This document shows positions 4,907 to 51,133 of a DNA stretch of 64,000 bases, one piece after another; position 1 is the stretch's first letter, and every line of letters begins with the position of its first letter. Source of the DNA: Thermodesulfobacteriota bacterium (GTDB lineage: Bacteria > Desulfobacterota > Desulfarculia > JACQYL01); assembly GCA_963675595.2 (NCBI GenBank), contig CAXXLZ010000002.1:2304001-2368000 (forward strand). The letters run 5' to 3'. The notes beneath the pieces were generated by a model, which saw only the letters and a list, made by a program, of their open reading frames with translations, was not told the origin of the DNA and did not search any database. The translations under genes and the position numbers were made by a program.

Positions 4907-6349
4907 CTAAACGTCGAAGACCGCCTGAACTCTCACGGGGACTTCCACCAAGTCCTCCTTGATGACCAGCACTTCCTTACGGCTCACCTTCCTGAGAAAC
5001 ACATGCTTGGCGGGATAGTCCATCCATGCTTCCTGCAATGCCTGTTTCGCCTTTTCCAGAGTTTCGCTTTCCGCCAACTGGGTAAAGGCACCATTTACCA
5101 TGGCATATACTCGGTAGCACTCTCCAAGAATTCTTGCTTCCCCCCGCTCCTCAAGCACGATCTGGGACGGAGGGGCGCCCATGGACTGGGGCGATGCGGA
5201 CCGTTGAGAGCGATCCGCGGCCGGAATCGGATCAAGCTTAGTGTCCGGCAAAGGCTCGGGTTTCGCGGCCGACGGAGGCGGACATTCTCCTCCGTTCATC
5301 TCCTTACGCGCATCCTCCAATAACGCATCCACGGCGCTCTGCTGGGAAAAGTCTTCCGTGTAGGGCGCCGGCTCAATATCCAGAGGAACATCACCCGCAG
5401 TCAAATCAGGGCCCTTGGGAATCATGTCCCGGACGGGCGCAGCAAGAGCTTCCGAATCTTCCTCGACGGCACTCTCCTCAGGCTCCGGAGTCTGTTCCGC
5501 CGGCTCGGAGTCTTCGCTCGCCTCTTCAGGCGCCGGCTCCTCTTCGGCATCCGATTCGATTGAGGAGAAGAGACTTTCGATGGAAGATTGATCCAAAACG
5601 CCGTTGCCTTCGGGTTCTTCCAGCGGAGTCTCTTCTTCCGAATCCGACGAGCCGGATTGGAGCATGTCATTGAGCAGACTGTCAATATCGGCCTGTCCAA
5701 CCAGCCCCCCGGACCCGGTGTCGCCCGTCGACTTCGTCCCGCCGTCGGAAGGCGTTTCGGGTTCAGCCTCCTTCTGCGCGGCTCCGCCCGGCAGACCACT
5801 TAAAAGGGACTCGATGTCGTCTTGAGACATCGTCTCCTTTTTGCGCGGGGGTTCCTTCACGGGTTCGGGTGTCGTGTCACCGCCCGCAGGACTGAACAAC
5901 GCATCAAGGTCGTCCTGCGACAGAACGCTGCCCGGAGACGAAGGTTCCTCGGCTGTTTCCTCCCGATCATCTCCTCCTGCTCCACTCAGCAACAGATCTA
6001 TGTCGTCCTGCGACACGGTACCGCCTGTCTGTTCTTTTTCGGATCCTTTGCCGGACCCGTTGCCTGATTTATTCAAGTACGAATCCATTTCTCTCCGAAT
6101 GGAGGCCATGGTCAACTTGAGAGCGGGTGGAGAGAGCCGATTGAGAAAGGATTCAAGGGCCGCCTTCACCACTTCGACATTGGAATCTTCAAAGTGCTCG
6201 TTATGGCGGTCGAGGAATTGCATGATCTCCTCGACGGTTCCTTTGTACTTCTCTCGCTTGGCAATCTGTATGAGGGCATCCCGTTCGCTGCTGAGCTTCT
6301 TGTTCGCCTCCTCAATGAGCTCGCCCAGTTTGAGTTGTGATCGAGCCAT
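4907..6349 (-). CDS. Hypothetical acidic protein with six SQDDIDxLL-type motifs
   Basis: Long ORF; ATG 6349 preceded by AGGTGAG; helical N-terminus, E/P/S/G-rich linker with repeated motifs, globular-looking C-terminus. Confidence 0.85.
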   Translation of the reverse strand: MARSQLKLGELIEEANKKLSSERDALIQIAKREKYKGTVEEIMQFLDRHNEHFEDSNVEVVKAALESFLNRLSPPALKLTMASIRREMDSYLNKSGNGSGKGSEKEQTGGTVSQDDIDLLLSGAGGDDREETAEEPSSPGSVLSQDDLDALFSPAGGDTTPEPVKEPPRKKETMSQDDIESLLSGLPGGAAQKEAEPETPSDGGTKSTGDTGSGGLVGQADIDSLLNDMLQSGSSDSEEETPLEEPEGNGVLDQSSIESLFSSIESDAEEEPAPEEASEDSEPAEQTPEPEESAVEEDSEALAAPVRDMIPKGPDLTAGDVPLDIEPAPYTEDFSQQSAVDALLEDARKEMNGGECPPPSAAKPEPLPDTKLDPIPAADRSQRSASPQSMGAPPSQIVLEERGEARILGECYRVYAMVNGAFTQLAESETLEKAKQALQEAWMDYPAKHVFLRKVSRKEVLVIKEDLVEVPVRVQAVFDV

Positions 6350-6629
6350 GGTTCTCACCTGTGTCCCGGGTTGTTCGTCACACCGTGTCCCTGTACCCGG
6401 AATACAAAACCCGTGCCGGCCCACGAAAGAAATCGTGAATTCTTTCTTGACCGGGCCGTTTCCGTCGTTTCATAAGAAAGAGAGCTCTGCGGGAGATTGG
6501 AGGGAGATCGGCAGCGTTCAGGATCATCGCCCCGAAGTTGATCTCCGGGCGGGAAACGCCGGCAAGGGCGCATTCTTTGCGCACCCTCGTTCCGCCGATG
6601 AGGCGCAAAAAGGGTTCTTTCTCGAAATT

Positions 6630-6658
6630 ATTCTACCCGCCCGTCAAAACATTGACAA
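6630..6658 (-). promoter_or_regulatory. Putative sigma70 promoter
   Basis: TTGTCA-N17-TAGAAT on the minus strand. Confidence 0.5.
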
Positions 6659-7112: not shown

Positions 7113-10100
7113 CTATTGACCCGACGGGTTCGACGGCGGATCGGAGTTCGTTACCGCTTCGTCGGACCTCAAGCTGAATGTATCGGATTTGAACAGAAGC
7201 CGGTACGCCTGCTCGAAATCGGAAAGATAGTGCGCCTTATCCCCTTGTTTATAGCGAGCGGTGCCCCTGGAAAACAAACATACGATCTCTGCAATCTCAG
7301 GATCCAGACTCTCAAACGAAGACGGTCGGAGGCCGAGCCGCTGAAATTCAGCCGGCGGGGATTCGCCCACCAGTTCCATCGCCCGCGTAAAGGCTTCTTC
7401 AGCTCTCTGAAACTGAAACATCTTGAGATGCATGAGCCCTTTCCTAAAGAAGGCGCCACCATTCTTGGGAGCGAGTTCAACCACTTTGGAAAAATCTTTG
7501 GCCGCAAGATCGTATTCCAGTAATCCCTGATAGGCTTTACCTCGGAGGTAATGGAAAATCGCACGATCGGGATCGTAAACGATGGCTTCGGAATAATCCG
7601 ACACCGCAAGATCGACCTCACCCCGACTCTGATACCCGGTTCCCCGACCAACGAGAAAATCGGCAAAGGATTCGGAGGAACTCGCGTCTATCACCTGCTT
7701 TATGCGTTCGAGCAACTTGATCTCGCGCTCCTTTTCCAGGAAAGCCATACTCCTGCCGAGGCCGAACAACACGCTTTCTGAAGAAGCCCCTGCTTCAGCG
7801 GCCTTGAAGAAATCCTCCACGGCTTCGGAGTGACGTCCCATGCCTTGGAGCGCCCTAGCCCGCCCCAGGTAAGCCTCTCCCAGCTTTGAGTTGATGGAAA
7901 GAGCGCGGTCCAGGTCTCGCAGGGCGGGATCCCAAAGAAGCAACGCAAGGTATGCCTCTCCGCGCTTCAACCAGGCAAGCGCTGATTCCGGATGCTCTCT
8001 GATTTTCTTGGTACATTTGAACACGCCTGAAGGAGAAAGCCCCGTGTCGAGATAGATTTCGCCCTTTATCACGCGGCCCGCACCCACCGGCACACGGGTT
8101 TCCTTCGATCCGGATTTCAGTGAGTGCACGGGTTCAGGGGGCGCAACATCCGCACCGATCACCATACGGTAAGCCTCCAGCGCGTCCTCCCGCGCCAAGC
8201 TCATGCCGCCCGCTCTCGAATAACTCGCTCCCCTGGAAATGAGAAACAGAGGCAGCCTTAGATCGGCAGAAACTCCCAAGAACCGGGATGACGCAGCTAA
8301 ATCGCTCGAAAAAACGCTTCCGGAGCGCTCCAACTCGATGGCTGTCTCAAAATCCCGAATCGCCTCCAATGGTTTATGTAGGACGGCATAAGTCTTTCCT
8401 CGCAGGTAAAACGGGTCCGCGGTCGGATGTCCGTCCTCCATCGCAAGCGTATATTCGGCCAAAGCCTCTTCGGGGTGATGGGAAGCCAAACGGACGTTGC
8501 CCGACAACAGCCTGATTCCCGGTAGCTCCGCCGCCTCCAATGCCGTGCGGAAACGCTCCAAAGCCTCTTCAAGATTTCCCCCATCCGCTTCCCCCAGCGC
8601 CAACCCCGCCAGGTACGCAGCCAATGCATCCCGGCCTAATGCCTGCGAATCGATCGACGCAACGGGATCCGGATATTGGGCACTTGTCACGCCGGCGCCC
8701 GCCAGTCGGCCTGAGGCGAAGGCCGCCTTAACGAGCCCCGCATTGCTCTTCAACGCATTCAGGTAATCGTCCAGCGCCCGATCAAATTGAGAGGTCTCTT
8801 CGTACAATTCGCCTCTCTCCATCAACAAGCCCGGATCCGCTCCCCCGTATTCCAGTGCTCTACCGAGGCTTTCGCAGGCGGCTTCCTGCAATCCCAAGGC
8901 CCGCTGAACGGCACCCTTGACTCGATAAGCCTTCGGCAAATCCGAATCCAACGACAACGCTTTGGCCACATCCGCAGCGGCCGCTCCGTAATTTTTCAGC
9001 GCCATTCGAGCTTCCGCCCGCCCCAAGTATCCGTCGGGTCGGCCCGGGTTTGAGCGGATCAGCGTGTCGAAAGATGAAAGGGCCCGGTCGGGCTTGCCGG
9101 ATGCGAGGAGAGCTTTGCCCTGAATCCGCAAAGCGTCGGGATTCCCGGGAGCCCGCTTCAGAGCCTTTGTCGCGTCCTGAACGACGGCATCCCACACGCC
9201 GCGTTTCAAGTATAGTTCACCTCGCGTCAACAGTCCTCTCAATGAGTTGGGCTCCATTGCGAGGGCACGATTCGCATCGGCAAGGGCGGCTTCCCCGTCT
9301 CCCACCTGTTCCCGAAGTCGGGCACGCTGTAGGAGCACTTCAACGTCACCCGGCGCCGCTTCGAAGGCCGCGTCCAATTCCTCGAGGGCCTGAACCGGCA
9401 TTCCCCTCTCATAAAAACCGGAGGCACGCCCCATCAGAAAGTGCGCGTAGCATCTCCGTCCGTCGTCGGTTTCCATGTGGAAATCGTCTCGAGTCGGCGT
9501 TGTTCCGGATTGCGACTCCTCAAGAACGAGACTTCGCCCCAACGCTTCATGCGCATCGAAAAAGACGGGATCCGACTTCAAGAGCTCCTCGAATCGAGTC
9601 ACGGCTGCGGCATGTTCACCGCGAGACTGCCAAATCAGGCCTTGAAGGAACAGGAGTTCCCGATCCTCCGGTTTCCATCGGAGCCCCTCCTCCACATCAT
9701 GGTCCGCCGGCTCCGTCAGCCCCAAATCCAGGTAAGCCCTCGCTCGCATCCGATACGCTTCAGGTACCTCCGGCTTCAGCTCGGCGGCGCGCGAAAGCTC
9801 CCAAATGGCGGAATCCGGTCGGCCGTTGGCCAAGAATGTCGCAGCATCGGCAATCCGCCGCCGAAAACCGGAGAGGGCGGCCGCCGCACCCACTTTGCCG
9901 AAGCCGAATTCGGCGGTTGGCTTCAGATTTTCAATCAGGGAAGAATACGCGGTAAAAAGTTCGTCTCTCCCCAATTCAATTCGGCCCTGTTTCCCCAAGA
10001 GCCTTCCTCGGCACAGGTGTAGGAAGGGGGACGTCGCTTCGGGGCCCAACGACTCGATTCGCGAGCATCTTCGGACTAGAATTTCTCGGATATCCGTGCC

Positions 10101-11867
10101 CTCGACCTCTTCGGCGTGAAGCGCACGCCCGTAATCCCAAAGAGCCCGATGCGGTTCGCCTGCGGCCTCATAAGCCTTTCCCCGATAATAAAGACCCGAT
10201 TTCGATGATGGTTCCAGCGTCAAGGCCTGATCCATGTCTCCGATCGCGACCACGATTCGGCCCAGGGCGAGGTTGGCCTGTCCCTTGAGTATCCACGCAG
10301 AAGCCGACTTGGGTTCCCCGGCCACCGCTTTTTCCAGTTGCTCGAGAGCTTCGGCGGGGCGTCTCATGTCCAATAGGACCCGGCCGAGCAGGCAGCGGGC
10401 CTCGGCTTCCAGTTCCCCGCTTTGGATACTTTCCAGATCCTTTATCGCGATCTCGTAGAAGCCGAGCCGGCGACAGGCCGCAGCACGGAACAGCCGAAGC
10501 TCCGCCGAGCCCGGATTTTCGTTCAACAGGCCCGTCAAGAGCCTGTATGCTTTGTGGTCTTGCCCGGCGAGCAATTGGGAAACCGCTTGAGATCGAACCT
10601 CTTCCGGGTTGTCGGATGAAACATCTTCGGTCCGGTCCGGCGGGGCAATATCATGGATATCGATCCCCAGCACCTTCCCGAGTCCCAGGACAATGTCTTC
10701 ATTCGCCCGGTTCACGAATCCGGCCCGCTGAAGAAGGCTTCCCCGTGCCACCAGCAGCATCCCGAAGGCCGCCGTGGAATCATACGAGGGAGGAATTCCG
10801 AATTGAGGCAACTTCCATCCCCGCGCCCGAAACGATGAGGACGGGAATTCCTCCACCAGCCGATCGAAATCTTCAAGAGCCTCGGGCATTCGTACCATGT
10901 TCCGGCGGAGCCGGCCTCGAAGAAAGAGGGCCCAAACCAGCCGATCGTCGATTTCCAGCGCCCTGGAATACTCCTTCAAGGCATTCTTGGTTCGGCCTTT
11001 CTTCTCATACAGGAGCCCCAAGAGGCAGTGGACCTCGGGCATTTCCGGATTCAATTTCAGGGCCTCCCGATAATCCACGGCTGCTTCCGCCACGCGGCCT
11101 GATTTGTGAAGCACCGCTCCTCGAAAGGCATATGCCTCAGCCTGAGTGGGGTTGGATTCAATGATGCGAGCGCACTCGGAAAGGGCCGCCTCAACGTCGC
11201 CATGATCGTAATACAGCATGGCCCGGCTCAGGCGAGAGCCGATGAGGGAAGGATCCAGCGATAGAGCCCGGTCATAATCCATTGATGCATTGTCCGGCTC
11301 CCCTGCCTCCAGGTAAGTTTCAGCCCGCAGGTTAAGCAACTCCGTATTGTCCGGCTCGGCGTGCAGGACTTTGGAGTAATCGTCCAACGCCTCAGCCAAC
11401 CTTCCCAGCCGCCGCAGAGCGGCTCCCCTTTTGAGCAACAGCTCTCGGTCTTTCGGGAATGCGCCGATCGCTGCGTCAAGATCCGAGATCGCCGCTTGGG
11501 TTTGTCCCATTTCGAGATAAACTTGAGCGCGCAGTGGATATGCAGCCGAGAAATCCGGGGCCTCCGAAAGGACACGGTTGAGTTCGGTCAATGCCTCGGA
11601 ATATCGTCCCTCCCGCACCAGAGCCTCTCCGCGATGATAGACAGCCTGTAGTTCCGAGGATCGACGATGGTGATGCACTCCCCAAATGCCGCCGACGGCC
11701 AAGCCGACCAGGAGCAGCACGAGAACAAACGGATTGAGTCCAAGAAAGCGTGATTTCATCGAGGCACTTTGTTCCAATGGAAGAGAAGAAGTCTTTACGG
11801 CCCCACCGGGCCCGGTTTGTGAAACGAACTTGCAGGTATCATAAGGCCGAATTGAACTATACCGCAT
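7113..11867 (-). CDS. Large membrane-anchored tetratricopeptide-repeat protein (start may be 11759)
   Basis: N-terminal hydrophobic helix, then many TPR units (AYxxRGxxYxxxGxxxxAxxDyxxAlxxxP). Confidence 0.9.
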   Translation of the reverse strand: MRYSSIRPYDTCKFVSQTGPGGAVKTSSLPLEQSASMKSRFLGLNPFVLVLLLVGLAVGGIWGVHHHRRSSELQAVYHRGEALVREGRYSEALTELNRVLSEAPDFSAAYPLRAQVYLEMGQTQAAISDLDAAIGAFPKDRELLLKRGAALRRLGRLAEALDDYSKVLHAEPDNTELLNLRAETYLEAGEPDNASMDYDRALSLDPSLIGSRLSRAMLYYDHGDVEAALSECARIIESNPTQAEAYAFRGAVLHKSGRVAEAAVDYREALKLNPEMPEVHCLLGLLYEKKGRTKNALKEYSRALEIDDRLVWALFLRGRLRRNMVRMPEALEDFDRLVEEFPSSSFRARGWKLPQFGIPPSYDSTAAFGMLLVARGSLLQRAGFVNRANEDIVLGLGKVLGIDIHDIAPPDRTEDVSSDNPEEVRSQAVSQLLAGQDHKAYRLLTGLLNENPGSAELRLFRAAACRRLGFYEIAIKDLESIQSGELEAEARCLLGRVLLDMRRPAEALEQLEKAVAGEPKSASAWILKGQANLALGRIVVAIGDMDQALTLEPSSKSGLYYRGKAYEAAGEPHRALWDYGRALHAEEVEGTDIREILVRRCSRIESLGPEATSPFLHLCRGRLLGKQGRIELGRDELFTAYSSLIENLKPTAEFGFGKVGAAAALSGFRRRIADAATFLANGRPDSAIWELSRAAELKPEVPEAYRMRARAYLDLGLTEPADHDVEEGLRWKPEDRELLFLQGLIWQSRGEHAAAVTRFEELLKSDPVFFDAHEALGRSLVLEESQSGTTPTRDDFHMETDDGRRCYAHFLMGRASGFYERGMPVQALEELDAAFEAAPGDVEVLLQRARLREQVGDGEAALADANRALAMEPNSLRGLLTRGELYLKRGVWDAVVQDATKALKRAPGNPDALRIQGKALLASGKPDRALSSFDTLIRSNPGRPDGYLGRAEARMALKNYGAAAADVAKALSLDSDLPKAYRVKGAVQRALGLQEAACESLGRALEYGGADPGLLMERGELYEETSQFDRALDDYLNALKSNAGLVKAAFASGRLAGAGVTSAQYPDPVASIDSQALGRDALAAYLAGLALGEADGGNLEEALERFRTALEAAELPGIRLLSGNVRLASHHPEEALAEYTLAMEDGHPTADPFYLRGKTYAVLHKPLEAIRDFETAIELERSGSVFSSDLAASSRFLGVSADLRLPLFLISRGASYSRAGGMSLAREDALEAYRMVIGADVAPPEPVHSLKSGSKETRVPVGAGRVIKGEIYLDTGLSPSGVFKCTKKIREHPESALAWLKRGEAYLALLLWDPALRDLDRALSINSKLGEAYLGRARALQGMGRHSEAVEDFFKAAEAGASSESVLFGLGRSMAFLEKEREIKLLERIKQVIDASSSESFADFLVGRGTGYQSRGEVDLAVSDYSEAIVYDPDRAIFHYLRGKAYQGLLEYDLAAKDFSKVVELAPKNGGAFFRKGLMHLKMFQFQRAEEAFTRAMELVGESPPAEFQRLGLRPSSFESLDPEIAEIVCLFSRGTARYKQGDKAHYLSDFEQAYRLLFKSDTFSLRSDEAVTNSDPPSNPSGQ

Positions 11868-12166: not shown

Positions 12167-15100
12167 ATGAGAGAGGAGAATGGAAGCGGCCATGAGGCGT
12201 CGGTTGATGAAATGGATCAGCTCAAGAATCGGCTGAGGGTGTATGAGAATCGTTGTTCTCTCTTTTTGAGAGGCTTCGGCGACGCTGTTTACATTTTCCC
12301 CGTGTGGCCGGGCAACGTTCCCGGCAAATTCGAAGAAGTCAACGAAGCCGCCTGCTCCATGTTGGGTTACTCCCGGGAGGCGTTTCTGGAAATGTCGCCC
12401 TTGGATATTGAAGCCCCCACGCCCACCCCATCCATCACGGCAATCCTCGGAACGCTGTCCCTCAACCAACCCCAAACATTCATCACCGCCCAGAAGTCCC
12501 GAACCGGACGAAACATACCCGTCGAACTCAGTATCCGTCTTTTTGCTCATAACGGAAAGACCATGGCGGCCTCCATCGCTCGTCGGCCCTCGGACTCCGA
12601 TTTGCAGAAAACGGCTCCCGGCACCGAACAGGAGAAGTACAAGGCGGTTTTCGAGAACGCGGGCATAGGCATGGACCTTGTGGATAATGACGGCCGTTTC
12701 ATCGAAGTAAATGCCGCTTTGGCTCGTATGCTCGGTTATACGCAAGAAGAACTACAGCACATGGCCATCCATGACGTCACTCATCCGGATGACAAGGAAA
12801 TTTCCGATCACTATCTTCGGGGGGCGATCTCAGGGGCCTTCCCCTCGTATCGGATAGAGAAGCGTTATCGCCGAAAAGACGGGACTACCCTGTGGGCCGA
12901 CCTATCCGTCTCTGCGGTAAGAGATTCCACCGGCCGCCATGTGTCCACCATCGGAGTCATCCAAGACATTACCCATCGCAAACAGACGGAGGATGCCCTC
13001 CGGGCCAAAGAGGAGAAATATCGAACACTGGTTGAAAACGCCGGAGACGCAATCTATGTCGCTCAAGAGGGCACGCTGATTTACCTGAACTCAAAGACTG
13101 AAGAGATATCCGGGTATACCGAACAGGAATTGAAATCCAGGCCGTTCATCGAGTTCATCCATCCGGATGATCGTGCGATGGTGTTGGAGAGACACATAAG
13201 GAGACAACAGGGAGAGGACCTCCCTTCTCAATATTCCTTCAGGATCGTCCGACGTTCCGGAGAAATTCGCTGGGTGGAACTGAACGTCGTTTGTTTGAAA
13301 TGGGAAGGGAAAAACGCCACTCTCAACTTCGTGAGCGACATCACCGAGCGCAAGCAAGCCGAAGATACCATTGCGCGTCGACTGACCTTTGAGCGGCTGC
13401 TTTCACGTATTTCCTCCAAGGCGGTGAAAGCGGACAATCTGCAGGAATTTTTGGATGACTGTTTGGCGGACATGTGTGGGACCTTGGGCGCGACTCACGC
13501 CCACCTTTTTGAGCACTGCGAGGAAACCGACACCATAGACCGGATATCCTCCATGCGCGCCGATGGAAGGTCCCTTGGTGAAGTGCCCCACGGCAACGAA
13601 TCGGATTCCCTCCCCTCCTGCTGGACGCAAGAGCTGCGCAACGGCCGAGTAATCCGTTGCGACGACGTTGAGAGAATCTCCGACGACGAGACAAGAGCAT
13701 ATTTGCGTCGCGGCAATATCCTCTCCGTCTTGGCCGTCCCGCTTTTCGTCGGGAAGAGTTATTACGGTTTTGTTCGCTTCGACATATGCGGAGCCCATTA
13801 CCCATGGCCGCGGGAGTGCCTGGAACTTTTACCCGCCCTCTCCGGAATCATGTCCGGCGTCATAGAACGAAGACGGGCGGATGAGGCCATTCAGACGGCG
13901 GAGGAAACCTACAGGACCATCTTTCTCAATTCTCAAATCGGTTTGTTCAGGACCGACATGAAGACCGGCCTGATGCTGGACGCAAACGATGCCGTGGCAC
14001 AGTTCGCCGGGTACAAGGACAGGGAGGAACTGCTCGCGGATCGGTTCAACATCGCGGAGCGCTACGTGGGCCCGGACGACCGGCAAAGAATGATTTCTCA
14101 ATTAGAGGCCAAGGGTGAGATAAGAAATTTCGAGGCACCCTTCAGGAAGAACGACGGTTCCGTCATACTCGTTCGATTCTCCGGCAGAGTTCACCATGAT
14201 AAGGGATGGATCGAAGGAGTATCCGAAGACATCACGGAACGAAAGCTGGCGGAGGAGGCGTTGCGCGAAAGCATCCTGCGTTACGAACTCGTTCTGGAGG
14301 GGGCTTCCGGGGGTATTTGGGATTGGGACGTGGCCAAGAAACGTGTGCACTTCTCCTCCAGTTGGAAAGCTATGCGCGGCTACGACGACAACGAAATAGG
14401 CACCGACGAGTCTGAGTGGAGTAAGAGGATTCATCCTGACGACGCCCCTCGAATCATGGAAGGAGTCCGGGCCCACTTCGCCGGGGAATCCCCCTTCTTC
14501 GAAGAAGAATACCGTGTTCGCTGCAAAGACGGCTCCTGCAAATGGGTTCTTGCCCGCGGCAAAGCGTTCCGCGATGCAAACGGTCGGATCGTGCGAATGG
14601 CGGGATCGGAAATCGACATTACCGAGCGGAAACGTACCGAAGCGGAGCGGGTGAGGCTGCAGGCTCAGTTGACTCAGGCTCAAAAGATGGAATCCGTGGG
14701 CCGTCTCGCGGGAGGCGTGGCCCATGACTTCAACAACATGTTGGGCGTGATTCTCGGTCAGACCGAGATGGCGCTGGCCCAGACCGATCCCGCCCATCCG
14801 TTATTCGCCCGTCTCCACGAAATCCAAAAGGCGGCCCAGCGCTCCGCGGACCTTACCCGGCAATTGCTCGCATTCGCCCGCAGGCAAACCATCAGCCCCA
14901 AGATTCTTGACTTGAATGAGACCGTGGAGGGGATGCTCAGAATGCTGAGGCGCCTCATCGGCGAGGACATCGATTTGGCTTGGCATCCCGGCAGAAACCT
15001 TTGGCCGGTCAAGATGGACCCTTCCCAAATAGACCAAATTTTGGCCAACCTGTGCATCAACGCCCGCGATGCCATTGCCTGTGTGGGGAAGGTCACCATA

Positions 15101-15802
15101 GAAACGGGCAAGGCGAATTTTGACGAAGAATACTGTGCGGACCGCCCTGGATTGGTTCCGGGCGAGTACGTTTTGCTGTCCGTGGCCGACAACGGTTGCG
15201 GTATGGAAAAGGCGACACTGGCCAATCTCTTCGAGCCCTTTTTCACCACCAAGGAGATGGGCAAAGGTACGGGCCTTGGATTGGCGACGGTCTACGGCAT
15301 TGTGAAACAGAACAACGGATTCATTGAAGTCCACAGCGAAAAGGGACTGGGCACCGTTTTCAAGCTCTACCTCCCGAAGCACGAGGGCCTGGAGGAGCCG
15401 ACCAACGTTGAATGCGTCATCAAAGATGTGGCTCGAGGCCACGAGACCATTCTTCTGGTTGAGGATGAAACGGCCATATTGGACATGGCTAAAACCATGC
15501 TGGAGAGGCTCGGATACCGGGTCGTGGCCGCCTGCACTCCCGGTGAAGCCATCCGATTAGCCGAGGACCACGCCGAAGAAATCAATCTGCTCATGACCGA
15601 TGTCGTCATGCCCGAGATGAACGGTCGGGAGTTGGCCGAACGCCTGCTTACCCTGTACCCGAACCTCAAATGCCTCTTTACGTCGGGCTACACCGCCGAC
15701 GTGATCGCGCATCACGGCGTCCTCGATGAGGGCTTGAACTTCATTCAGAAGCCTTTCTTGTTTCAGGATCTGGCCTTCAAACTGCGAGAGCTGTTGTCGT
15801 GA
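12167..15802 (+). CDS. Cytoplasmic hybrid histidine kinase (multiple PAS/PAC, GAF, HisKA, HATPase, REC)
   Basis: Repeated DITERK PAC ends, [10 protein letters not shown]-box, FEPFFTTK and GTGLGL boxes, ILLVEDE...DVVMP receiver. Confidence 0.95.
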
Positions 15803-16090
15803 ACCAACCGATTCCGATTCATCGCCCTCTCTCTGAGCGGTTCCGCGATGTACATGTTCGCGATGATTGCCGACCCGTTCTTTCTTGCACGCTTCAAGCG
15901 CCGGCAATGAAAGGCATCGGAAACAACGAGACTGAAATTTGAAAGGAGGGAAAGAAGCCCATTGAGCCGAGGAAATGGGCCCGACCGGCGGCCGCTCTTT
16001 GGTTGGGACGGACGTAGTCAATGAGAGTCCGTGACGTGCGCGGGCGAAATGCCTGCGGGATGATTGAGAGGACAAGGGGGAGACGAAGTG

Positions 16091-17677
16091 ATGATTTGGC
16101 TGAAAAATCTGAAGATCGGTACCAGAGTAGGGCTTGGCTTCACCGTTATTATCATTTTCATGCTACTGATCGGGTATGGCGGTTTTCTTGGTGTCAATAC
16201 CGTAAAATACGAGCTAAACGACATCTTTGAGACCAGATTTCCCAGCCTTGATTACCTGATCGAGGCCGACCGCGACCTTCAACAGCTCCTCGTTGCGGAA
16301 AGGTCCATGATCTTCGCCGACGCGAACTCCGAGGTCTTCAGGCGGTTGCTTCAAGATTACGAGCAGAACCTGAAGCAATCGGAAGAACGGATAGGCAAAT
16401 ACGCCGCTCTCTCCATTACCCCGGAAGAGCGTAAAATCATACTTGAGTACGAGTCCGCCGCGAAAGAATGGAAGGAGGTGTCCAGGCGGGTGCTGGAAGC
16501 TCGGATGGCGGATACTCCCGAAAGTCGTCGAGAAGCCACTGACCTCACCTTGGGCGAGGCGGAAAAGAAATTCGAAGAAATGAGGGAGTATATCGACACA
16601 TTGACGGAGCTGGTACTCAAGCTCGCGCGAGAAGCTCATCAAAACGCCGAAAGCATGTATGACAGGACCATCTACACGCTTATCGGAATCATAGGCGTCG
16701 GCTTACTGGTGGGCATTGTGTTGATGTGGCTCATGAATCGGGCGATCACGCGTCCCCTGAGAGCCGCCATTGAAGGATTGACCGGCATTTCGATGCAGGT
16801 GGCCTCCGCCTCCGGCGAGGTGGCGTCTTCGAGTCAACAACTGGCAGAGGGTTCGTCCGAGCAGGCGGCGTCTTTGGAGCAGACTTCGGCCTCACTGGAA
16901 GAAATGTCTTCCATGACCCGGCAGAATGCGAACAACGCCGGGAATGCCGATGGCCTGATGAAAGGGGCGCAAGAGGTGGTGGACATGGCGAATACGTCCA
17001 TGTCCCAACTCACGGCCGCTATGGAGGAGATATCCAATGCCGGCGCCGAGACATCGAAGATCGTCAAAACCATCGACGAGATAGCTTTTCAGACCAATCT
17101 GCTGGCGTTGAACGCCGCGGTGGAGGCCGCCCGCGCAGGTGAAGCCGGAGCCGGTTTCGCGGTGGTGGCTGACGAAGTGCGGAACTTGGCCATGCGCGCT
17201 GCGGATGCCGCCAAGAACACGGCCGGTCTGATCGAGTCCACCATCAAGAAAGTCGGTGACGGGTCGGAACTGGTCACCAAGACGAACGGCGCCTTTTCCG
17301 AGGTGGCCGCCAACTCTAAAAAAGCGGCCGAGCTGGTCGCGGAAATCGCCGCGGCTTCCAACGAGCAGGCCCAAGGCATCCAGCAGGTCGGGATCGCCAT
17401 CGCCGAGATGGACAAAGTGACTCAAAGGAACGCGGCCAACGCCGAAGAGTCCGCCTCCGCCTCGGAGCAAATGAGCGCCCAGGCGGAACAAATGAAAACG
17501 TACGTTGGCTATTTGGAGAGGTTGGTCGGCAGCCGTAGGGAAGAGTCGCAAACACGGCGGATCGGTTTTTCCCGTGCCGGACGAAAAGGGTCTCCGGCTG
17601 ATGCTGCGGGCGGGAGAAAGAGTCTACCGGCTTCGACGGGTATCGTCAGGCATTCCGGCTCGAAACAGCAGGAATAG
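16091..17677 (+). CDS. Methyl-accepting chemotaxis protein with 4-helix-bundle sensor
   Basis: Two TM helices; [37 protein letters not shown] signalling hairpin. Confidence 0.96.
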
Positions 17678-43437: not shown

Positions 43438-45189
43438 TCAGTCGATCACGGGCGGATTGTCGCATCCCGAATAGGTTACCGTAATGGGGTCCTCACCGGC
43501 ACATTGAAACACCACCTGACCTCCGGTGGGATGAGTGCAGTCTATTCCCACATCCATGGTGAGGTCCGTCACCGTCAGTGTGGCCCCGCCGTAGCTGCTG
43601 GTCTTTTCGGCACTCGTATTTACCGTGAGAATGTCCTGGTCCCGTACCACGATCAGATCCGCAATCAGCGTGCGGGTACTCGCCTCTTCGGTCACCGCCA
43701 TGTTGGTGGTGATTTCCAGGGTCCCCCCGTCGTCGCCCATGTCGCCGTCAAAAGTCGCCTTGCCCGTGACGGACAGATCGGGAACTCCGAAGTTATTGAA
43801 GGTGAGGTCCGCCTCCAGGTTCGGGGAGTCGCTCGTCGGATTCTCGATGACGCCGCTGATGCTGAACGCCCCGGACAAGGGCACCCCGTCGGCCACGAAG
43901 GAAGTCGAAGTGAACACCAGCGAAAAAGGTATTTCCGTTGCCGAAGTGCCATCAGCCGAAAACGACAGGGAGCCGGCTCCCGAAAAGGACCAGTCTCCTT
44001 GAGTTAGATTCGACGAAGTGATGGCTACCAGGCCGGAGATTTGCGCCGACGAAGTACTGCCGGACACTTCCAGATCCAGGCTCCCGGAGATGCTCCCATT
44101 GAGAGGATCGCCGTCTGCTCCCGCATCCAGGTTGGTGAACGTCGCCTCCAAGCTTCCGCTTATGTCGAGATCCAGGGGTGGAGAATAGTCCACGTCGAGA
44201 TTCGAGAGGTGCAGTTCCATGGAACCGGAATACAACCGTCCGTCCACGGTGCACCCCGTCCCGAAATCCACGACGATGTCCAGTTCGGATGGTGGCTTCA
44301 GCTTGAAGAAATCCGTAATGGGCGGATCCACCGTAACCTCGGGGCATCCGGAAGAACCTCCCGCCAGGATCGCGTCCAGGATGACCTGTCCCACGCCCAG
44401 AAGATCGTTAAAAGAGCCTCCGGCGGACAATTCGATAAGTTCCCGGATATTTTCCACCAATCCTCCGGCTTCAGCCTCACCCACATCACAGCCGCCCGGA
44501 TCATCCGATACGTCCGGCGCGATGAACTCTTGATCCAAGGACCAAGAGTCGGAGCCTCCGCCTCCCCGTTGAATCACCGCATCCACCGAATCGCCCGTAT
44601 TGAACGTCAGTTCCAGGGTGTCCTCGGAACCCGGAAGCAGACTCGATGCATGTACGCCGTCCCGATAATCCGAGTCCAGAAAGACTTCAAACGTCACCAG
44701 GTCCTGGGTAAGAATCGCGATTACGGAATGATAGGTCTCGTAAAATTGGAGATAAAGATTCGTGGTCACCGGGTCGGGCTTGTACAAGCCGTCTCCCGAC
44801 CGGTCGGCGTCCGGCGACGCGAACTGCCGCGAAAAAGAGTACGACGTGGAACTTGCCGGCGTGAGGGCCCCCGCTTCGGCCACATCGGACGCAGTCAGGG
44901 ACGCTTGCGCGGTGAAGGTCGTCTCGTTGAAATTCATGACGAGGTGTTCTTGAGGATTGTTCAAAGCGTCCACATCGACTCCGTCTCGATAGTCGGAATC
45001 CAGGAACACGTGCCAGTGCTGCAGGTCGGGGGTCAAGATCACGATGATCGACTTGGTGGTGTAAGTTTGGACATAGGCGCTCATGGCGTCGTCCGCGGTC
45101 TTGTAAATCCCGTCCAAAGCAGCGCCCGCCGTAGCGGCCGATGCAACGCACACCAGCAGGACCAAACAAACCGCGAGTCTTCTTCTCAT
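43438..45189 (-). CDS. Secreted acidic hypothetical protein with a duplicated N-terminal domain
   Basis: GGAGG RBS, Sec signal, two ~100-aa repeats, S/T/G/D-rich beta-like C-terminal half. Confidence 0.8.
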   Translation of the reverse strand: MRRRLAVCLVLLVCVASAATAGAALDGIYKTADDAMSAYVQTYTTKSIIVILTPDLQHWHVFLDSDYRDGVDVDALNNPQEHLVMNFNETTFTAQASLTASDVAEAGALTPASSTSYSFSRQFASPDADRSGDGLYKPDPVTTNLYLQFYETYHSVIAILTQDLVTFEVFLDSDYRDGVHASSLLPGSEDTLELTFNTGDSVDAVIQRGGGGSDSWSLDQEFIAPDVSDDPGGCDVGEAEAGGLVENIRELIELSAGGSFNDLLGVGQVILDAILAGGSSGCPEVTVDPPITDFFKLKPPSELDIVVDFGTGCTVDGRLYSGSMELHLSNLDVDYSPPLDLDISGSLEATFTNLDAGADGDPLNGSISGSLDLEVSGSTSSAQISGLVAITSSNLTQGDWSFSGAGSLSFSADGTSATEIPFSLVFTSTSFVADGVPLSGAFSISGVIENPTSDSPNLEADLTFNNFGVPDLSVTGKATFDGDMGDDGGTLEITTNMAVTEEASTRTLIADLIVVRDQDILTVNTSAEKTSSYGGATLTVTDLTMDVGIDCTHPTGGQVVFQCAGEDPITVTYSGCDNPPVID

Positions 45190-49232: not shown

Positions 49233-49402
49233 CCAAGAGTCTCCTCTGCGTTCGCGTCCCGATGAAATCGAACCTTCATCGCATGCCCCAATTCCCCCCA
49301 TGGGACGAAACGGAAGGCCATGCTTGGAACTCGGAGGGGAAGGATACCGGGGACCGCCCACGCAGGGCGACCCCCGGCGTCTTGAATCGATGCGTTCACA
49401 CG

Positions 49403-51133
49403 CTAGAAATTGAATACGGTGTCCAATTCCTCGTCCGAGACGTCAAAGACCACATTGTGGGGCGCCACGGGTTCCTTGCGGAAGAACTCCGGCAGGCGAT
49501 CGTCCTCGCTGCTGAACCCCGCCTTTCGATTGAAGTCGCGTTCAACCTTCAGAATGTCCTTCCCGGTCTGAACGAAGGTGTCCGCGGTGAAGGACGTGCC
49601 GGTTTTGGCGGTAATCATCTCGCATATGCCTTCCAGGGCTGTGGGATCGTCCAGCACGGCGAAGGCGGTGAACAGGCAGAGGCCCGTGGAGTCCAAGGTG
49701 GCGGTGGCGATCTGCAGGTTTCTGGAAAGCTCCACCTGACCCTCGGTCTTCAGAGGATTCACCTGACCGCCCACACTCAGGATGTTCGCGGTTGTGGCGT
49801 ACCCCGCCGTATGGTCCGCGCCCATGGTCGAGGTGGCATAGGTCACCCCCATGCCTTTGACCGCTCTGGGATCGTAGGCGGGCAGGGCTTGTCCCTTGAC
49901 CACGGGTACGTGTTTCACCCCGAATACACGACCGGCGGTTTCCGCTCCGCTGCCCAAAATACGGCCGAGGGGAGTTCCCTCGCTCACTTCCTTGATCAAC
50001 CGAAGAACGCCTTCGGCATCCCCGAATGGGAGAACTCCGCCTTCCATGACGACCCCCATGGTGGCTCCCATCTCGATGGTATCCAGGCCCACGTCGTCGT
50101 ACATCCGATCCATGCGCGCGATGGCGTGAAGATCGCTGATTCCGCAATTGGGACCATTGGCCCAGACGGTTTCGTACTCAGGCTCCTTGGTCACGTACTC
50201 GCCTTTCTCGTCGACCCAAACTCCCGAGCATCGGATGGTACACCCCGAATGACAGCCGTGGGTGGGTTTCCCGCCCAATTTGGTAATAATTTCGTGGGCC
50301 GCCTCCCCGCTGACTTTTTCAGCCGCGTCGAACTGACCCGACGAAAAGTTCCTGGTGGGCAACCCGCCCGCCTCGTTGAGAATATTGGTCAGAACATTGG
50401 TCCCATACGTGGGAAGCCCTTGGCTGGTCACCGGATGGGAATTGAGGGCGTCGAGAAACTTCTTCTGCGCCGCCTTGAACCCGTCCGGATCCTCAAGAGG
50501 CGCCTTCTCTCCTCCGGTGGGATCAACAACCACGGCCTTGAGTTTCTTGGAGCCCATGACCGCGCCCAACCCACCGCGTCCGGCGTGGCGAGTGGGACGA
50601 TTCTCCTGGTCGGTGACCGCGATGCTCGAAGCGGTAAGCAGCATTTCACCGGCGCGACCGATGGTAATGAATGCGGATTTGGTGCCGTATCGTTCCTCGA
50701 GTTTGGCCACCGCATCGTAGTTGTTCAAGCCCGCGATATCCGCCCCGTCTTCCATCCGAACGCCGTCTTTGGTGATGACGGCCACGGACCACTTGTCGTC
50801 TTTGGGGACTCCTTCCACCACCACGCCTTGGATGCCCAACCGCGCCAAGTATTGCCCCGCTTGTCCTCCGGCGTTGGACTCCTTGATCCCTCCCGTAAGG
50901 GGACTCTTGGCTCCGAATGAGATCCGTCCGGATGTGGGCGCAATGGTCCCACCTAGAATTCCGGGAGCAAACACGAGCTTGTTATTGGGTCCCAACGGAT
51001 TGGACTGAGGGTCAACCTCGTCGTGCAGCATGCCCGAAGTGAATCCCCTACCCCCCAAGTGCCGGTACTTGTCGGGGACCTGCTCGAACGCCGCAGCCCG
51101 GTTCGTCATATCGATTCTCAAAATCCTCGCCAT
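49403..51133 (-). CDS. aor: Aldehyde:ferredoxin oxidoreductase (W-pterin)
   Basis: ILRIDMT, KSPLTGGIKESNAGG, GRGGLGAVMGSKKLK, CHSGCTIRC, EPEYET, DDRLP. Confidence 0.95.
   Translation of the reverse strand: MARILRIDMTNRAAAFEQVPDKYRHLGGRGFTSGMLHDEVDPQSNPLGPNNKLVFAPGILGGTIAPTSGRISFGAKSPLTGGIKESNAGGQAGQYLARLGIQGVVVEGVPKDDKWSVAVITKDGVRMEDGADIAGLNNYDAVAKLEERYGTKSAFITIGRAGEMLLTASSIAVTDQENRPTRHAGRGGLGAVMGSKKLKAVVVDPTGGEKAPLEDPDGFKAAQKKFLDALNSHPVTSQGLPTYGTNVLTNILNEAGGLPTRNFSSGQFDAAEKVSGEAAHEIITKLGGKPTHGCHSGCTIRCSGVWVDEKGEYVTKEPEYETVWANGPNCGISDLHAIARMDRMYDDVGLDTIEMGATMGVVMEGGVLPFGDAEGVLRLIKEVSEGTPLGRILGSGAETAGRVFGVKHVPVVKGQALPAYDPRAVKGMGVTYATSTMGADHTAGYATTANILSVGGQVNPLKTEGQVELSRNLQIATATLDSTGLCLFTAFAVLDDPTALEGICEMITAKTGTSFTADTFVQTGKDILKVERDFNRKAGFSSEDDRLPEFFRKEPVAPHNVVFDVSDEELDTVFNF

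Follow-up and report, generated by a model that had tools for sequence, protein, structure and literature searches.

Results

The window analyzed here is a 64,000-nucleotide (nt) stretch of the genome of a Thermodesulfobacteriota bacterium (contig CAXXLZ010000002.1, positions 2,304,001 to 2,368,000), and its subject is an orphan gene for a 480-residue protein, followed by a second paralogue of the flagellar gene fliN, called fliN2 (Table 1). The open frame covers 4907-6424 on the minus strand (505 codons from GTG); the ATG at 6349 is probably the true start, because the sequence AGGTGAG sits 4 nt upstream of it and the orthologue P0003 begins at the same Met. The protein is identical to P0002 and 93% identical to P0003. 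An earlier note, made from the DNA sequence alone, had drawn attention to six peptides in this protein that resemble the N-terminal peptide (FliM_N) through which the flagellar switch protein FliM binds phosphorylated CheY (CheY-P), and counting along the translation finds all six where the note had placed them.

Table 1. The array gene, its parts and its immediate surroundings, in window coordinates
Feature	Position	Strand	Description
Orphan gene, 480-residue protein	4907..6349	-	Stop codon 4907-4909; from open reading frame (ORF) and translation; N-terminal helical domain, acidic peptide-array linker, C-terminal alpha/beta domain
N-terminal domain, residues 1-97	6059..6349	-	Predicted five-helix bundle; AlphaFold2 helices 8-21, 23-33, 39-48, 58-69 and 74-96
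Motif 1, VSQDDIDLLL, V112-L121	5987..6016	-	Predicted helix 114-121
Motif 2, LSQDDLDALF, L143-F152	5894..5923	-	Predicted helix 145-151
Motif 3, MSQDDIESLL, M174-L183	5801..5830	-	Predicted helix 176-184
Motif 4, VGQADIDSLL, V217-L226	5672..5701	-	Predicted helix 219-232
Motif 5, LDQSSIESLF, L252-F261	5567..5596	-	Predicted helix 254-266
Conserved segment PDLTAGDVPLDIE, residues 314-326	5372..5410	-	Second short linear element; only in closer orthologues
Element 6, SQQSAVDALL, S335-L344	5318..5347	-	Off-type relative of the motif; begins predicted helix 336-351
C-terminal domain, residues 401-480	4910..5149	-	Beta-beta-alpha-beta unit, then RKEVLVIKED
fliN2, second FliN paralogue, 150 residues	4282..4734	-	Directly downstream of the orphan gene; C-terminal SPOA domain
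Candidate sigma-70-like promoter, TTGTCA-17 nt-TAGAAT	6630..6658	-	About 280 nt upstream of the start codon; consensus scan, weak
Upstream ORF, 99 residues	6761..7060	-	No family above cut-off; then terminator-like hairpin at 6698-6680

Five of the six peptides fit the strict pattern [SDTGNE]Q..[IVLM][DE].[LIM][LFIM], and successive copies stand about 31–43 residues apart. When all stop-to-stop frames of at least 80 residues in the 6.8-Mb genome (6,521,851 residues) are scanned with this pattern, 72 matches are obtained; the frame of the orphan gene holds five of them, one other frame holds two, and no other frame holds more. Composition-preserving shuffles of the whole protein gave one match in 190 of 20,000 cases and two or more in none, and when only the linker was shuffled the corresponding numbers were 90 and none, again out of 20,000. 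By both the genome-wide and the shuffling controls, the motifs are genuine and non-random. Taken over 90 instances in 20 family members, their consensus is [LV]-[SD]-Q-[SD]-D-I-D-A-L-L-[SA].

Members of the family carry between 2 and 10 copies on linkers that vary freely in length and sequence, and an alignment of seven sequences (A4) has ten invariant columns within residues 98–399, nine of which fall on the motifs; conservation of the motifs alongside variation of the linkers, on which the earlier note had staked its reading, is thus borne out. Across the seven orthologues, Q114, D116, D118, L120 and L121 are invariant in motif 1, as are Q219, D223 and L225 in motif 4; in motif 3, L182 is invariant and D178 and I179 are nearly so among 20 family members. 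Element 6 has Ser instead of a hydrophobic residue ahead of its Q-Q pair; the closer orthologues keep it, in the form QQxxVDA, as an element of its own that follows a PDLxAGDVPLxIE segment, in which P314 is invariant across A4.

An AlphaFold2 model based on 20 family sequences shows a confident five-helix N-terminal domain (residues 8–96, predicted local distance difference test score (pLDDT) of about 90) and a confident small beta-beta-alpha-beta unit at residues 401–460 (pLDDT about 93), with a strongly conserved tail (residues 461–480) that is placed less confidently; modeled alone, the C-terminal domain has a pLDDT of 82.9. The part between them is mostly below pLDDT 50, save for six short helices, each of which coincides with one of the six peptides, in agreement with the proposal that the motifs lie in a linker between an N-terminal helical and a C-terminal alpha/beta domain. 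The linker (residues 98–400, 303 residues) has an isoelectric point (pI) of 4.05, a net charge of −56, and contains 34 Pro, 29 Gly and 38 Ser residues. No transmembrane (TM) segment is apparent in the protein, the highest Kyte-Doolittle hydropathy over 19 residues being 1.16. The N-terminal domain is the best-conserved part of the family (e.g., LKLTMAS), and RKEVLVIKED in the C-terminal domain is its most conserved stretch.

Pfam and NCBIfam assign no family to the protein (the sole row is ECH_2, at E 0.062), and among 20 family members no Pfam family is found in more than two or above its cut-off. Neither the protein nor any of the 20 family members matches FliM, CheC or FliMN_C in Pfam or NCBIfam; CheZ (PF04344) is found neither in the protein nor anywhere in the genome; CheC (PF04509) is not found in the protein, the genome's single CheC-type match being located at C2:762 kb; and Pfam, NCBIfam and hhalign detect no SPOA domain in the protein. 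This agrees with the earlier note, in which no CheC/CheZ phosphatase or SPOA domain had been recognized. A profile search gave no sequence relative of the terminal domains in the PDB, the ESM Atlas no usable match to residues 1–100 or 398–480, and Foldseek nothing at E ≤ 0.001, whether with the full model or with the C-terminal domain alone. With VIA-align, the best Z was 5.1 for the full model (the N-terminal domain matching generic helical chains) and 4.2 for the C-terminal domain alone, and the fold-search matches listed include no flagellar or chemotaxis protein. The terminal domains thus match no characterized family in Pfam or NCBIfam and have no outstanding fold match in Foldseek or VIA-align, as the earlier note had anticipated, and the protein is a new family. 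Two candidate identities were tried and rejected: a cryptic SPOA fold for the C-terminal domain (hhalign of the family against FliN2 gives a probability of 0.5%) and a histidine phosphotransfer or CheZ-like N-terminal domain (alignment A2 lacks a conserved His, and the domain is built of short helices).

The peptides are of the FliM N-terminal type, both by their consensus and by an alignment of the family profile, which places motif 1 on FliM residues 2–35 of 8umd_C; the E value of this alignment (0.39) is weak, as a match of 15 residues would lead one to expect. The FliM of the host itself is encoded at C2:77314-78324 (TIGR01397, 337 bits) and begins with MSQILSQEEVDALL, which includes ILSQEEVDALL, so the genome's FliM has retained its own N-terminal peptide.

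The protein is rare: only five matches, itself among them, came out of 5.8 billion proteins searched by a word-based method, and a phmmer search of 1.84 billion cluster representatives (50% clustering) gave 48 matches at E ≤ 0.001, 18 of which share the N- and/or C-terminal domain as judged from the matched regions and the alignment. The other 30 are unrelated proteins that have only the peptide array in common with the query; 28 of them carry 2–23 copies (five or more in 26), at a median spacing of 33 residues. That one copy per protein is the norm, as the earlier note had it, therefore remains true of FliM and FliY but does not hold for some 30 other proteins, most of which have arrays of 5–23 copies.

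These arrays are found in several architectures. In P0038, a FliN SPOA domain (PF01052, E 1.1e-20) is joined to 13 copies, of which the first stands at residue 6, a FliM-like position; the protein shares 46% identity with FliN2 over 107 residues and, in its first 28 residues, 57% identity with the FliM N-terminus. In eleven array proteins, the array is N-terminal and is followed by a single TM helix and a FliL-related C-terminal domain; Pfam FliL is seen in only 2 of the 11 and below cut-off (P0030, E 5.9e-4; P0013, E 7.1e-3), and a profile of the 11 C-termini run against all frames of the present genome has a single match, the fliL gene (E 7.9e-7), whose own identity as FliL was confirmed separately. 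One of the eleven, encoded at L039:8331-11078 on the minus strand in genome G180, is 915 residues long and has 16 copies, eight of them in near-identical 33-residue units, ahead of its TM helix and FliL-related domain. In G180, G296 and G210, the FliL-type array genes lie about 9–11 kb from fliM, the one in G180 between flhF-flhG-fliA and flgF/flgG. Five other proteins combine an array with a TM segment and TPR or TPR-like regions (P0017, P0043, P0048, P0025 and P0040), and in a family made up of P0014, P0031, P0036 and P0050 an uncharacterized N-terminal globular domain precedes the arrays.

The remaining two of the 30, P0026 (155 residues) and P0039 (149 residues), are made up almost entirely of four copies of a variant, S-Q-x-D-L-[DN]-x-L-W, with one canonical SQDDIDRLL at the end; the variant with Trp looks similar to the FliN_N element described below, a hint that the two motifs may be related. 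The products of L012:787-2433 (plus strand, 10 copies) and L014:1093-2328 (plus strand, 5 copies) share another conserved C-terminal helix, VFERVARE..IP....E.....EI, which matches no Pfam family; neither gene has flagellar neighbors within about 9 kb.

Beyond the order to which the present genome belongs, matches in a sample of 401 genomes of the phylum are confined to the repeat region. FliM is present in all 12 genomes with array-type matches (9 genera), as compared to 238 of the 401 overall, a co-occurrence that is descriptive only, since the genomes are related and two queries were used. The array ORFs of G210, G296, G021, G187, G312 and G252 enter this count without a residue-level reading, and four matches (G118, G111, G084 and G098) that have the FliL-like end only, in ORFs of 168–181 residues, were not counted as arrays.

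Genes of the target type are present in five out of five genomes of the order, an uncultured Desulfobacterota lineage, and in all four relatives fliN2 directly follows the orthologue, far from fliM-fliN1; the synteny that the earlier note had asked about is thus conserved. In three of the four, the gap is about 28–39 nt or the genes overlap. FliN2 is a clear FliN by its SPOA domain (PF01052, E 3.4e-21; TIGR02480, 91.6 bits, above the 84.05 cut-off) and is 49% identical to FliN1 over 81 residues of that domain. The genome has exactly three SPOA domains, in FliM, in FliN1 (encoded right after fliM) and in FliN2, 2.2 Mb away, and this same set is found in four of the five genomes of the order, the fifth being 71% complete. 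The fliN gene is accordingly adjoining, downstream and co-oriented as the note had described it, but it is a second paralogue rather than the fliN of the switch operon. No terminator-like site is found on the minus strand between the two genes. Complex predictions for two copies of FliN2 with residues 395–480 of the orphan protein gave an interaction prediction score from aligned errors (ipSAE) of 0.00 in both runs, a result that counts neither way.

At its N-terminus, FliN2 has a DDVWAEALEEQ element (Pfam FliN_N, 21.4 bits, below cut-off) that is absent from FliN1. This element, D-D-x-W-A-x-A-L-[RE]-E-Q, is present as a single copy here, as three copies in the L019 orthologue (L019:10016-10531, plus strand) and as two in that of L021 (L021:7565-8068, minus strand), and is a second repeated short motif in this gene pair.

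The main flagellar cluster has the order motB-like, fliL, fliM, fliN1, fliOPQR, flhB, flhA, flhF, flhG, fliA, cheY, with flhG at C2:69481-70371 and cheY at C2:67804-68217. The CheY encoded there can be aligned over its full length with the enterobacterial protein (E 1.8e-46 to 2chy_A) and has a Y-[IV]-V-K-P-F stretch and a Lys aligned with E. coli residue 119. Two ORFs behind cheY match no NCBIfam family: C2:67233-67763 on the minus strand (L041:2234-2764), which follows it directly and encodes 176 residues with a hydrophobic segment, and C2:65447-67132 on the minus strand (L041:448-2133; 561 residues); both are in the genome under study (G000). The two CheA genes and the CheC-type match are all located away from the orphan gene.

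As for the surroundings of the orphan gene, the promoter consensus scan that gave the candidate in Table 1 found 3 sites versus 1.2 expected from shuffles. The upstream 99-residue ORF is conserved in two of four related genomes (L018 and L020, of the same family; 64% identity) and was not found by the orthologues in L019 or L021. Farther upstream on the same strand (window 7113-11867), there is a gene for a 1584-residue protein that consists almost wholly of TPR repeats behind an N-terminal hydrophobic segment; in none of the four relatives was it found beside the orthologue. A hybrid sensor kinase that has several PAS domains as well as GAF, HisKA, HATPase and one receiver domain (12167-15802, plus strand) is followed by a methyl-accepting chemotaxis protein (16064-17677, plus strand; 4HB_MCP and MCPsignal); these two lie 6–10 kb from the orphan gene, and no other gene of chemotaxis type is present among the 16 window ORFs scanned. 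Two long window ORFs have no Pfam match at E ≤ 1e-5 (43438-45189, minus strand, 583 residues; 49262-50920, plus strand, 552 residues), and in both cases there is a long overlapping ORF on the other strand, which leaves their coding strand unsettled.

Discussion

Read from its sequence, the orphan protein may be a multivalent CheY-P docking scaffold tied to FliN2, a reading to which we would give about an even chance. Its acidic, disordered middle part would display five canonical and one degenerate FliM_N-type peptide, each as a short helix, and each copy would, by analogy with FliM_N, dock onto the alpha4-beta5-alpha5 face of phosphorylated CheY; with copies about 31–43 residues apart, several CheY-P molecules could be bound at the same time. 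Anchoring or oligomerization of the array would be the task of the conserved N- and C-terminal domains, the likeliest anchor being the base of the flagellar C-ring, reached via the co-encoded FliN2: the P0038 fusion and the conserved fliN2 neighbor both suggest that the array is brought there. Held close to the switch in this way, a local pool of CheY-P would either feed FliM (a tether) or compete with it (a sponge or buffer), in both cases altering the gain, threshold or kinetics of switching, and FliL-type carriers would place similar arrays at the membrane by the stators. Sequence and gene context suggest, rather than establish, CheY-P as the ligand, FliN2 as the anchor and an effect on switching. 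In one study, CheY is described as binding the FliM "EIDAL" motif (i.e., the FliM_N peptide), and such motifs are said to occur sporadically in FliN and FliY (PMC6946799).

A number of observations weigh against this proposal. At position 3 of the motif, the arrays mostly have Asp and the FliM of this genome has Glu. The orphan gene and fliN2 are separated by 172 nt, so that their co-transcription is not certain. A distance of 2.2 Mb lies between this pair and the flagellar and che clusters, and the pair's other neighbors are aspS/hisS and a TPR gene. The one divergent relative for which context is available, L035, has no adjacent fliN (the metagenome scan gave this single locus, and the scan of genome contigs only three known relatives). 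More than 150 receiver domains are encoded in the genome, and the relevant "CheY" may therefore not be that of the flagellar cluster. Finally, a study in Shewanella reports the EIDAL motif as both required and sufficient for binding to FlhG, and FliM as stimulating the FlhG ATPase (bioRxiv 10.1101/2022.04.21.489128). Given that the same motif is reported to bind FlhG and that FlhF and a MinD-like FlhG are both encoded here, sequence alone cannot choose between CheY-P and FlhG.

The array might bind FlhG, a MinD-type ATPase, and help to set the number and position of flagella or to assemble the C-ring, with no direct role in chemotactic signaling; it may then titrate FlhG or hand it over to FliN2-containing switch subcomplexes. 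We regard this as unlikely, even if several findings besides the Shewanella results fit it: flhF, the MinD-like ATPase gene and fliA stand in classical order in this genome, FlhF is above cut-off in four of the five other array-bearing genomes, and one array gene comes immediately after flhF-flhG-fliA. ATP-bound FlhG is a dimer and could therefore cross-link a multivalent array. FliL, on the other hand, associates with stators, and arrays on FliL-type proteins are harder to explain by an assembly factor. According to the same preprint, CheY-P is the better documented and higher-affinity ligand of the peptide (bioRxiv 10.1101/2022.04.21.489128). The two ligands may also both use the array.

A partner of another kind for the repeated helix (FliN2 or another SPOA protein, FliG, a stator protein, or a CheY-like or PilZ-type second-messenger effector), in a polar or motor scaffold of the HubP/FimV type, seems to us about as improbable as FlhG. 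HubP/FimV proteins are described as having a long acidic cytoplasmic region with repeats of variable number and sequence; FlhF, FlhG, chemotaxis arrays and ZomB/MotV are among the clients (PMC12918733). The five array proteins with a TM segment and TPR or TPR-like C-terminal regions, as well as the abundance of receiver domains in the genome, are in line with such a scaffold. Against it, the motif fits FliM_N position by position, which points to the known ligands of FliM_N, and the orphan protein lacks a LysM, TM or TPR part.

That the array is a mere by-product of tandem duplication in a low-complexity acidic spacer, with no specific ligand and with only the terminal domains functional, is very hard to credit: several other array proteins do have near-identical 30–35-residue units indicative of recent duplication, and copy number is unstable between relatives, but the repeat units of the present family have fully diverged except for the motif, to which nearly all of the invariant linker columns belong, and unrelated architectures share one and the same 9-residue core, as selection on the peptide would lead one to expect.

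Returning to the docking scaffold that we favor, the array is a new form of a known docking motif. No description of FliM_N-type peptide arrays was found in the literature searched, at the level of titles and abstracts and outside subscription journals and supplementary files (the supplementary figures and lists that accompany PMC6946799 and deal with the EIDAL motifs of FliN and FliY could be relevant here).

The contact between CheY-P and FliM_N is the textbook last step of bacterial chemotaxis, usually described as being made through one peptide per FliM subunit. Proteins with 5–23 copies of the peptide would, if they act as proposed, change the view of how signal strength at the motor is set, the more so since some arrays are joined to FliN and FliL-type motor parts by fusion or by genetic linkage; they would then be local reservoirs, competitors or delivery tethers whose gain can be adjusted via repeat number. 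Since the same peptide recruits FlhG, arrays could in addition link chemotactic signaling to the control of flagellar number. A broader and more tentative idea, which we consider possible but doubtful, is that FliM_N-type arrays are a widespread undescribed module, present on the orphan family and on FliN, FliL-related and TM-TPR proteins, that forms a multivalent docking cloud round the motor, holding tens of CheY-P and/or FlhG molecules within nanometers of the switch. Such a cloud would amount to a new layer of control (by buffering, hand-off or condensate-like concentration) tuned by copy number, and in the present organism a dedicated second FliN would insert the array into the C-ring. 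Electron cryotomography studies of Desulfobacterota motors would gain a specific extra component to look for.

Among known systems, HubP/FimV is alike in having an acidic region with variable repeats (pI 4.05 for the linker and 2–10 copies in the present family), a likeness that concerns acidity and repeat number. It is unlike in its periplasmic LysM domain, TM segment and C-terminal FimV/TPR domain, none of which was found in the orphan protein by Pfam or hydropathy. CheZ, which carries its C-terminal CheY-docking helix on a flexible linker from a helical domain, has a comparable layout; it differs in having one copy of the helix rather than several and a long hairpin where the orphan protein's N-terminal domain has short helices, and PF04344 does not match the latter. 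The closest likeness is to the peptide of FliM and FliY, which has the same core, hydrophobic-S-Q-x-[DE]-I-D-A-L-L, and is likewise predicted to be helical. In FliM and FliY, the peptide is present once, whereas the orphan protein has 5–6 copies and other array proteins up to 23. The peptide of FliM is N-terminal, whereas those of the orphan protein are internal, between two domains that match no family, and have no FliM middle domain, CheC-like domain or SPOA domain beside them. With respect to FliY, no CheC-like phosphatase domain is detected; the array protein and FliN2 jointly hold the peptide and SPOA parts of FliY, and P0038 has both in a single chain.

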